A stretch of DNA of 64,000 nt, from the sequence record OQ626344. The stretch is one strand, 5' to 3'. The notes under the pieces were generated by a model that saw nothing but the letters and a program-made list of their open reading frames with translations, ran no database searches and had not been told where the DNA came from. The position numbers and the translations under genes were made by a program. Source of the stretch: Escherichia phage S127 BCL3. The first letter of the stretch is position 1, and every line of letters begins with the position of its first letter. Below, in pieces: positions 37,284-37,670 of this stretch.

Positions 37284-37312
37284 TTGACACGACGCTGAAG
37301 ATTTAGTATCAT
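37284..37312 (+). promoter_or_regulatory. sigma70-like promoter upstream of hpf-like gene
   Basis: TTGACA-N17-TATCAT, then hairpin AGAGGGG-ttggt-CCCTCT and AAGGAA RBS. Confidence 0.55.
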
Positions 37313-37358
37313 TGTTTTCAAAGAGGGGTTGGTCCCTCTTCTTTAAAAGGAACACATT

Positions 37359-37670
37359 ATGCAAATTGAAATCACTGGCAACGTAGAAATCACTGAAGGT
37401 ATGGTGTCTTTCATTTCCAACAAAATGTCCAAGCTGGAGCGTTTGCACCCCTCTGCCAACTATGCACGTGTGAGTGTAAAAGTTGAAAATGATCACCAGG
37501 AAGTTATGGCTTTCATTTTTGACACTTCTGGAAAAGAAGTTATCGCCAAAGCTAAAGGTAGTGATGCTTACGAGGCAACTGACCGTATGGTAGATGTTGC
37601 AGCACGCCAGTTGGCTAAGTGTGGTGGAAAGAAAGGTAAGGGAAAAGGTAAAGTAAAGATTGACTTTTGA
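37359..37670 (+). CDS. hpf: ribosome hibernation promoting factor (HPF/YfiA family) homologue
   Basis: MQIEITGNVEITEGM, KLERL, RVSVKVEN and AKGSDAYEATDRMVDVAARQL parallel E. coli HPF (MQLNITGNNVEITEAL ... AEGQDMYAAIDGLIDKLARQL). Confidence 0.7.
   Translation: MQIEITGNVEITEGMVSFISNKMSKLERLHPSANYARVSVKVENDHQEVMAFIFDTSGKEVIAKAKGSDAYEATDRMVDVAARQLAKCGGKKGKGKGKVKIDF

Follow-up and report, generated by a model that had tools for sequence, protein, structure and literature searches.

The closest described counterpart of the gene analyzed here is ORF144 of phage rV5, whose GenBank record (DQ832317) gives the product as 'sigma 54 modulation factor'; the same record has a 'Sigma70-type promoter; P144' where the promoter discussed below lies. 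Gene and promoter were annotated in 2006, and Kropinski et al. (2013) reported 33 sigma-70 promoters across the rV5 genome (PMC3606486). The gene was published as a phage hibernation promoting factor (HPF) by Mizuno et al. (2019), who listed the proteins of rV5, FV3, JES-2013, FFH2 and typing phages as phage-encoded HPF and found that the rV5-type sequences group with those of gammaproteobacteria (PMC6375957). In their proposal, the viral protein might act as a competitor of cellular HPF and so keep ribosome dimers from forming (PMC6375957). After expression of the rV5 protein in E. coli, peptides from it were detected in the crude extract but not in high-salt-purified 70S and 100S ribosomes, the 100S peak did not change, and the sedimentation profiles remained essentially unchanged (PMC6375957). 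Growth phase, a true loss of binding and salt stripping were given as possible reasons for this negative result, which was called inconclusive (PMC6375957).

Mathieu et al. (2020) counted hpf among the auxiliary genes of rV5 phages (PMC6969025), there is no discussion of the gene in the BASEL paper, and our literature search found no later functional study of it beyond these 2019 and 2020 papers. Sequence records name the gene variously 'sigma 54 modulation factor', 'ribosome hibernation factor', 'hpf' or 'RaiA'. Because the gene and its promoter stand in the rV5 GenBank record, and the gene appears again in Mizuno et al. 2019 and Mathieu et al. 2020, neither the gene nor its family nor its promoter is a discovery of this work; all three were known before. 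The additions made here are the absence of any cellular relative above 44% identity, a sister allele at 64% identity, a map of ribosome contacts, a variable basic tail, and the conservation of the promoter set against that of the hairpin.

The window analyzed, 64,000 nucleotides of Escherichia phage S127 BCL3 (OQ626344), carries the gene on the plus strand at 37359..37670. The original prediction placed an HPF/YfiA homologue with its own promoter at 37284-37670, and these coordinates are exact. The open reading frame encodes a 103-aa protein, MQIEITGNVEITEGMVSFISNKMSKLERLHPSANYARVSVKVENDHQEVMAFIFDTSGKEVIAKAKGSDAYEATDRMVDVAARQLAKCGGKKGKGKGKVKIDF, whose translation contains every motif quoted at that time, namely MQIEITGNVEITEGM, KLERL, RVSVKVEN and AKGSDAYEATDRMVDVAARQL, together with the Lys/Gly-rich tail GGKKGKGKGKVKIDF. 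Direct reading of the sequence shows a Shine-Dalgarno-like AAGGA at 37347-37351 (+), 7 nt before the ATG. The HPF core ahead of the tail spans 37359..37622 (+) and is defined by profile and PDB sequence matches, an AlphaFold2 (AF2) pLDDT of about 90 and a dN/dS of about 0.05. The C-terminal tail, residues 89-103, occupies 37623..37670 (+) including the stop codon; it is predicted to be disordered and has a net charge of +5. Both the Pfam match and the pattern of variation over codon positions set this frame beyond chance, and it is a real gene.

The gene lies in a block of small genes that contains several near-consensus sigma-70 promoters on the same strand. Its upstream neighbor occupies 36987..37277, and the TTGACA hexamer begins seven bases past the stop codon of that gene. 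The promoter, at 37284..37312 (+), is of sigma-70 type and corresponds to P144 of rV5, with TTGACA at 37284-37289, a 17-nt spacer and TATCAT at 37307-37312, which together match the consensus at 11 of 12 positions. Sites with at least 11 of 12 matches number 11 per strand in the window versus 0.97 expected per strand in Markov-1 random sequence, an excess of about 11-fold. All 16 Vequintavirus alleles compared have an identical -35 hexamer and keep its distance of 17 nt to the -10 hexamer, which reads TATCAT or TATTAT; the TTGACA and its flanking AAACTG are also retained in the lineage of 64% identity. The gene's own TTGACA-N17-TATCAT promoter, as first described, is therefore present, conserved and already annotated, and its prediction as a promoter of the host sigma-70 type is credible.

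The hairpin reported upstream of the gene fares less well. It is present at 37321..37340 (+) as AAGAGGG-GTTGGT-CCCTCTT, with a 7-bp stem, a 6-nt loop and a folding energy of -10.4 kcal/mol, and it lies at, or a few nucleotides from, the predicted 5' end of the P144 transcript, whose +1 is placed near 37319-37321; however, it is poorly conserved and statistically ordinary. Its energy is typical for its composition (z = -0.69), with 57 of 200 shuffled sequences folding as well. Among the alleles the energy ranges from -5.3 to -11.7 kcal/mol and is weakened in Murica, V18, nomo, Pr121LW and A141 (-5.3 to -7.0), where stem mismatches are uncompensated; no compensatory change was seen in the stem of any allele. 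The hairpin is absent from the lineage of 64% identity and has no match in Rfam. In view of the ordinary energy, the uncompensated mismatches, the absence from the divergent lineage and the lack of an Rfam match, the idea of a conserved RNA element was rejected.

Within the window, the palindrome core AGAGGG…CCCTCT is found at just one other site, 41574-41597, giving two sites against 0.01 expected. That second site is a rho-independent terminator on the plus strand, GAAGAGGGG…CCCCTCTTTTTT, which has the stem sequence of the hairpin and is annotated in rV5. Since the core recurs only at this terminator, the hairpin may be a terminator-like module or the remnant of a weak terminator. Stem-loops at the 5' terminus are known to protect mRNA, and by analogy the hairpin, located at the predicted P144 5' end, may also stabilize the transcript.

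Profile and structure comparisons bear out the HPF/YfiA identity first proposed for the protein. The Pfam profile search assigns it to PF02482 (Ribosomal_S30AE) with 48.9 bits against a curated cut-off of 23.7 (E = 1.1e-12), and TIGR00741 scores 47.1 bits against a curated cut-off of 40.9. Of the solved structures, E. coli HPF is its best sequence match (E = 7e-12, over residues 1-89), and the likeness to this protein that the original prediction had stressed amounts to 38/94 identical residues (40%), as opposed to 22/101 (22%) for YfiA. The AF2 model has an overall pLDDT of 84, about 90 across the core, and arranges its elements in the order E-H-E-E-E-H (E2-7, H13-29, E33-43, E46-55, E60-67 and H70-92). 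With this model as the query, the best 35 Foldseek matches in the PDB are all HPF, YfiA or pY structures; Vibrio HPF (4HEI) ranks first, with TM scores of 0.84/0.93 and an rmsd of 1.0 Å, E. coli HPF within the 100S ribosome (6H4N) follows at 1.1 Å, and TM scores for 4HEI, 6H4N and 2RQL range from 0.83 to 0.93. The near-invariant residues of the family, G7, K22, G58, D69, Y71 and D75, are all kept.

The more specific models set limits to this assignment. The protein passes both family-level HPF/RaiA cut-offs but neither of the equivalog ones, scoring 55.5 bits against 125 for short HPF (NCBIfam NF007780) and 19.4 bits against 158 for RaiA/YfiA (NCBIfam NF007654). The C-terminal dimerization domain of long HPF, about 60 residues following a linker, is absent from this 103-aa protein, whose residues 91-103 are disordered in the model. 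Among phage protein families it belongs to phrog_12469 (E = 6e-69); its match to phrog_8990 reaches only 1e-6. The protein is thus a true HPF/YfiA (Ribosomal_S30AE) family member, if a divergent one, with a core like that of short HPF, and, as both equivalog models failed and the dimerization domain is missing, it is not an orthologue of host HPF or RaiA.

The reading that we prefer, with a probability of roughly 55%, is that gene 144 encodes a divergent HPF that is expressed early from a host-type promoter, binds weakly and reversibly in the decoding channel, and parks or protects ribosomes as 70S particles rather than as 100S dimers. The distribution of the gene, its rate of change, its contact residues and its tail all bear on this reading and on its rivals.

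Escherichia phage B9-1 matches the region at 99.2% identity, and a further 116 records do so at 93-99%; all are rV5-like Vequintavirus myoviruses, and the HPF gene is present in 117/117 of the matched Vequintavirus records. In the 16 alleles compared, variable sites fall 6/4/38 on codon positions 1/2/3 and the median dN/dS is 0.05, so the gene is under strong purifying selection. A word-indexed protein search and a scan of IMG/VR returned just near-identical phage alleles, and the wider family, invisible there, emerged when 1.84 billion cluster representatives were searched exhaustively with HMMER. That search yielded only 32 proteins at E <= 1e-3, including one cluster of phage type (P0004, 65% identity). 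Beyond this cluster, no relative above 44% identity was found among the 1.84 billion representatives, and the one at 44% (P0008) is an HPF of enterobacterial type. A further hit, a 1160-aa protein (P0007, E = 1e-8), was rejected as a PPC-repeat protein with a spurious additive match.

The P0004 allele (64% identity) lies at the same locus in syntenic, uncultured rV5-like contigs and still passes the Pfam cut-off. In the Logan contigs (L005-L008) this sister allele is located at 3001-3312, with a TTGACA -35 hexamer, without the 5' hairpin and with a different basic tail. No copy of the gene was detected in a host chromosome or prophage across 5,426 complete E. coli genomes. A tblastn search with E. 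coli HPF matched phage records that are nearly all Vequintavirus; among the exceptions listed are the jumbo phage XaC1, short fragments of Listeria-phage and faecal origin, and a Salmonella genome record. The HPF gene is a long-held signature of the genus Vequintavirus. Recent capture from the host finds no support in these sequence comparisons, as no cellular relative exceeds 44% identity.

These data also dispose of the idea that the gene is a functionless passenger, recently captured from the host and now decaying. Such decay might be read from the end of the tail, which varies and is frameshifted in some isolates. The idea is nonetheless excluded by a dN/dS near 0.05, by the presence of the gene in every matched Vequintavirus record and at the same locus in the 64% lineage, and by the lack of both a close cellular donor and a copy in complete E. 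coli genomes; we give it virtually no chance. Separately, 18 of the matching records, marked UNVERIFIED and labeled 'Campylobacter phage' (MG0656xx, e.g. L019), with C. jejuni as the stated host, are classified as Vequintavirus and carry the gene at 95-98% amino acid identity. Their attribution to C. jejuni is probably wrong.

Several features around the gene deserve mention in their own right. A second promoter-like site, TTGACT-N16-TACAAT with a TG extension, at 37660..37687 (+), overlaps the last HPF codons and the stop codon. It is conserved in the alignment, coincides with a PhagePromoter prediction in the Gotham record, and may be the promoter of the small ORFs that follow. The interval 37686-37787 (+), immediately behind the HPF gene, holds the counterpart of rV5 ORF145, a hydrophobic peptide of 33 aa, whose start codon is ATA here and ATG in 15/15 other aligned Vequintavirus alleles, including that of the 99%-identical B9-1. 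Either this small gene has been inactivated or the change is a sequencing difference.

An 89-aa ORF at 37814-38083 (+) was considered as a second HPF and rejected, as it has no Pfam match. It is labeled 'sigma 54 modulation factor' in APCEc02, and the label was copied to pangalan, nomine and nomo; given the missing Pfam match, this label is an off-by-one slip that spread from record to record. Elsewhere the genuine HPF gene carries the wrong name 'ATP-dependent protease La'. The interval 36084-40188 (+) contains at least eight small paralogue-like ORFs (starts at 36084, 36301, 37814, 38176, 38444, 39248, 39509 and 39859) that share an N-terminal MK(V/I)K, a VF(V/I)xG motif and an acidic, YEVVEE-like C-terminus; none of the eight has a Pfam match. 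Elsewhere in the window, seven tRNA calls (Pro, Met, Thr, Ser, Tyr, Arg and one without assignment) lie at 1600-2411 (-). One call, at 1844-1942, stands out: it is 99 nt long, its anticodon has four bases ('atcc'), and the Rfam tRNA model gives it just 35.5 bits.

Comparison with a published list of ribosome contacts for Gram-negative HPF and YfiA (bioRxiv 10.1101/2025.10.07.680626) shows a mixed pattern. The original prediction had named a lack of conserved ribosome-contact residues as grounds for refutation, and these residues are conserved only in part. In E. coli numbering K23, K26, E44, E60, R83, Q84, K87 and K91 are kept, with Q29 present as R, whereas five positions are replaced (R17V, T53F, H55F, K80V and K89G). 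The basic residues K22, K25 and R28 of helix alpha-1 are kept, as are R83, Q84, K87 and K91 of helix alpha-2; in cellular HPF these residues touch 16S rRNA. The same five positions are replaced in both phage lineages, the 64% allele having T at 80 and S at 89. Valine at position 80 is also found in several cellular family members of the alignment, so K80V is not disqualifying. Between the two phage lineages 10/22 contact-equivalent positions are identical versus 52/72 other positions (p = 0.04), a difference that is confounded by surface exposure and on which we do not lean.

Replacement of five canonical contacts in both lineages could also mean that the fold has been exapted: ribosome binding would be lost, and the HPF scaffold, a dsRBD-like alpha/beta fold, would together with the basic tail take on a different nucleic-acid or protein target, for example phage RNA or a host defence. 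Faster evolution at contact-equivalent positions than at the rest points the same way, subject to the confounding by surface exposure, as do the two missed equivalog cut-offs and the lack of a cellular relative above 44% identity. The absence of the protein from purified ribosomes fits as well, but high-salt washing also strips cellular hibernation factors from ribosomes. Mizuno et al. themselves called the salt-wash negative inconclusive (PMC6375957). The most conserved rRNA contacts, R83, K87, K23 and K26, are kept along with the near-invariant family residues, and V80 is shared with cellular proteins of the alignment. With these points against it, exaptation appears unlikely to us.

Past C88, the tail is rich in Gly and Lys, and its residues 91-103 have AF2 pLDDT values below 50 and are predicted to be disordered. 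It contains six basic residues and one acidic residue, which lifts the pI of the protein to 9.0 versus 6.5 for HPF. The tail ends in …IDF, …IDFGE, …FLD or …FRE depending on the allele, is frameshifted in APCEc02 (…GRKKGKGERQSKD), is truncated in Murica (…GKGKAK) and has a different sequence in the divergent lineage, SKSKGIDKRTAKWDY. Despite this variation, it is basic in every allele. In cellular HPF the matching segment prolongs helix alpha-2, with a line of basic residues along 16S rRNA (bioRxiv 10.1101/2025.10.07.680626), and in YfiA a longer tail heads toward the RMF site.

Returning to the preferred reading, that of a weak 70S-directed HPF, P144 would be transcribed early by unmodified host RNA polymerase. 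The product, gp144, would then bind the decoding channel of vacant 30S or 70S particles reversibly and more weakly than host HPF, and its flexible basic tail would, by analogy with YfiA, project to the mRNA channel and the RMF site. Ribosomes would thereby be parked or protected as 70S monomers in the manner of YfiA, with no 100S dimers; alternatively, the outcome might be that ribosomes are kept out of hibernation imposed by the host. The suggestion of 70S parking instead of 100S formation follows from the replacement of the distal basic track of alpha-2, from K89 onward, by the flexible Lys/Gly tail. The absence of the phage protein from salt-washed ribosomes neither proves nor excludes ribosome binding, and the absence of an effect on the 100S peak agrees with a 70S-monomer reading (PMC6375957). 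Counting against the preferred reading are that salt-wash negative, the five replaced contact positions, the two missed equivalog cut-offs and, with its confounding, the lower conservation of contact-equivalent positions.

The same experiments bear on two other roles. If gp144 were an abundant early protein that silences ribosomes globally to shut off the host, as YfiA does in the cold, its strong early-type promoter and the ability of family members to block the A and P sites would be expected features. HPF-type factors, however, do not discriminate between mRNAs, so phage translation would be equally inhibited, and expression in E. coli left ribosome profiles essentially unchanged (PMC6375957); we consider host shut-off very improbable. 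The second role is the anti-hibernation competition proposed by Mizuno et al. (PMC6375957), in which a low-affinity occupant of the HPF/YfiA site, or a tail that blocks RMF, would stop host factors from locking ribosomes into 100S/70S hibernation and leave them free to translate phage mRNAs when the host grows slowly. Loss of K80 and K89, the flexible basic tail directed like that of YfiA and the strong host-type promoter are consistent with such a competitor, and neither a rise in 100S nor retention after the salt wash was seen, as would fit a weak binder (PMC6375957). However, expression did not lower the 100S peak either (PMC6375957), an occupant of the site would itself block tRNA and mRNA binding, which makes a net benefit questionable, and both ribosome binding and displacement of host factors are putative. 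On this balance we hold the competitor role to be doubtful.

A further reading describes gp144 as a dedicated viral manipulator of ribosome hibernation, an early and weak occupant of the decoding site with an RMF-excluding tail, which would wake or protect ribosomes in slow-growing hosts or shield them from A-site-dependent defence toxins. We offer it tentatively, as a possible but not a probable account.

The sequence finding by itself adds nothing new, and its value lies in a functional test of a phage HPF, which is still worthwhile. The points added here on the cellular donor, the tail, the contacts and the promoter versus the hairpin bear on such a test. If gp144 proves to work on ribosomes in infected cells, this would show that a common group of virulent coliphages directly tunes ribosome hibernation in its host. 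The consequences would extend to how phages replicate in bacteria that grow slowly or are in stationary phase, in the gut or sewage for instance, and to phage therapy against dormant cells. Should gp144 turn out to manipulate hibernation, it would be the first viral factor with a demonstrated function in promoting or countering hibernation.

Set beside known systems, the closest is rV5 gp144 (ABI79209), the same gene at the same locus behind the same promoter P144, with 98% amino acid identity. The rV5 protein has 105 aa, ends in …KIDFGE and carries H21 and N56, whereas the window allele has 103 aa, ends in …KIDF and carries N21 and T56; the proteins of ECP26 and ECP32 are 100% identical to that of the window. 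E. coli short HPF (YhbH; 2RQL, 6H4N) has the same fold (TM 0.83-0.90, rmsd 1.1 Å) and shares with the phage protein MQ-x-x-ITG-N-VEITE and ARQL-x-K, but it ends in KDKLKQH where the phage protein has its 15-residue Lys/Gly tail. Short HPF of gammaproteobacteria turns RMF-induced 90S dimers into 100S, whereas expression of the rV5 protein in E. coli brought no stimulation of 100S. E. coli YfiA/RaiA also has this fold; both it and the phage protein continue past helix alpha-2 in a C-terminal extension, and neither is associated with 100S formation. The phage tail is nevertheless shorter, basic and Gly-rich, and is unrelated to that of YfiA, which ends acidic. The HPF homologues of Cronobacter phage GAP32 and Xanthomonas phage XaC1 (phrog_8990) are independent phage-borne Ribosomal_S30AE genes: they come from jumbo phages and belong to a different PHROG from the window protein, and the GAP32 homologue groups with sequences from Firmicutes.
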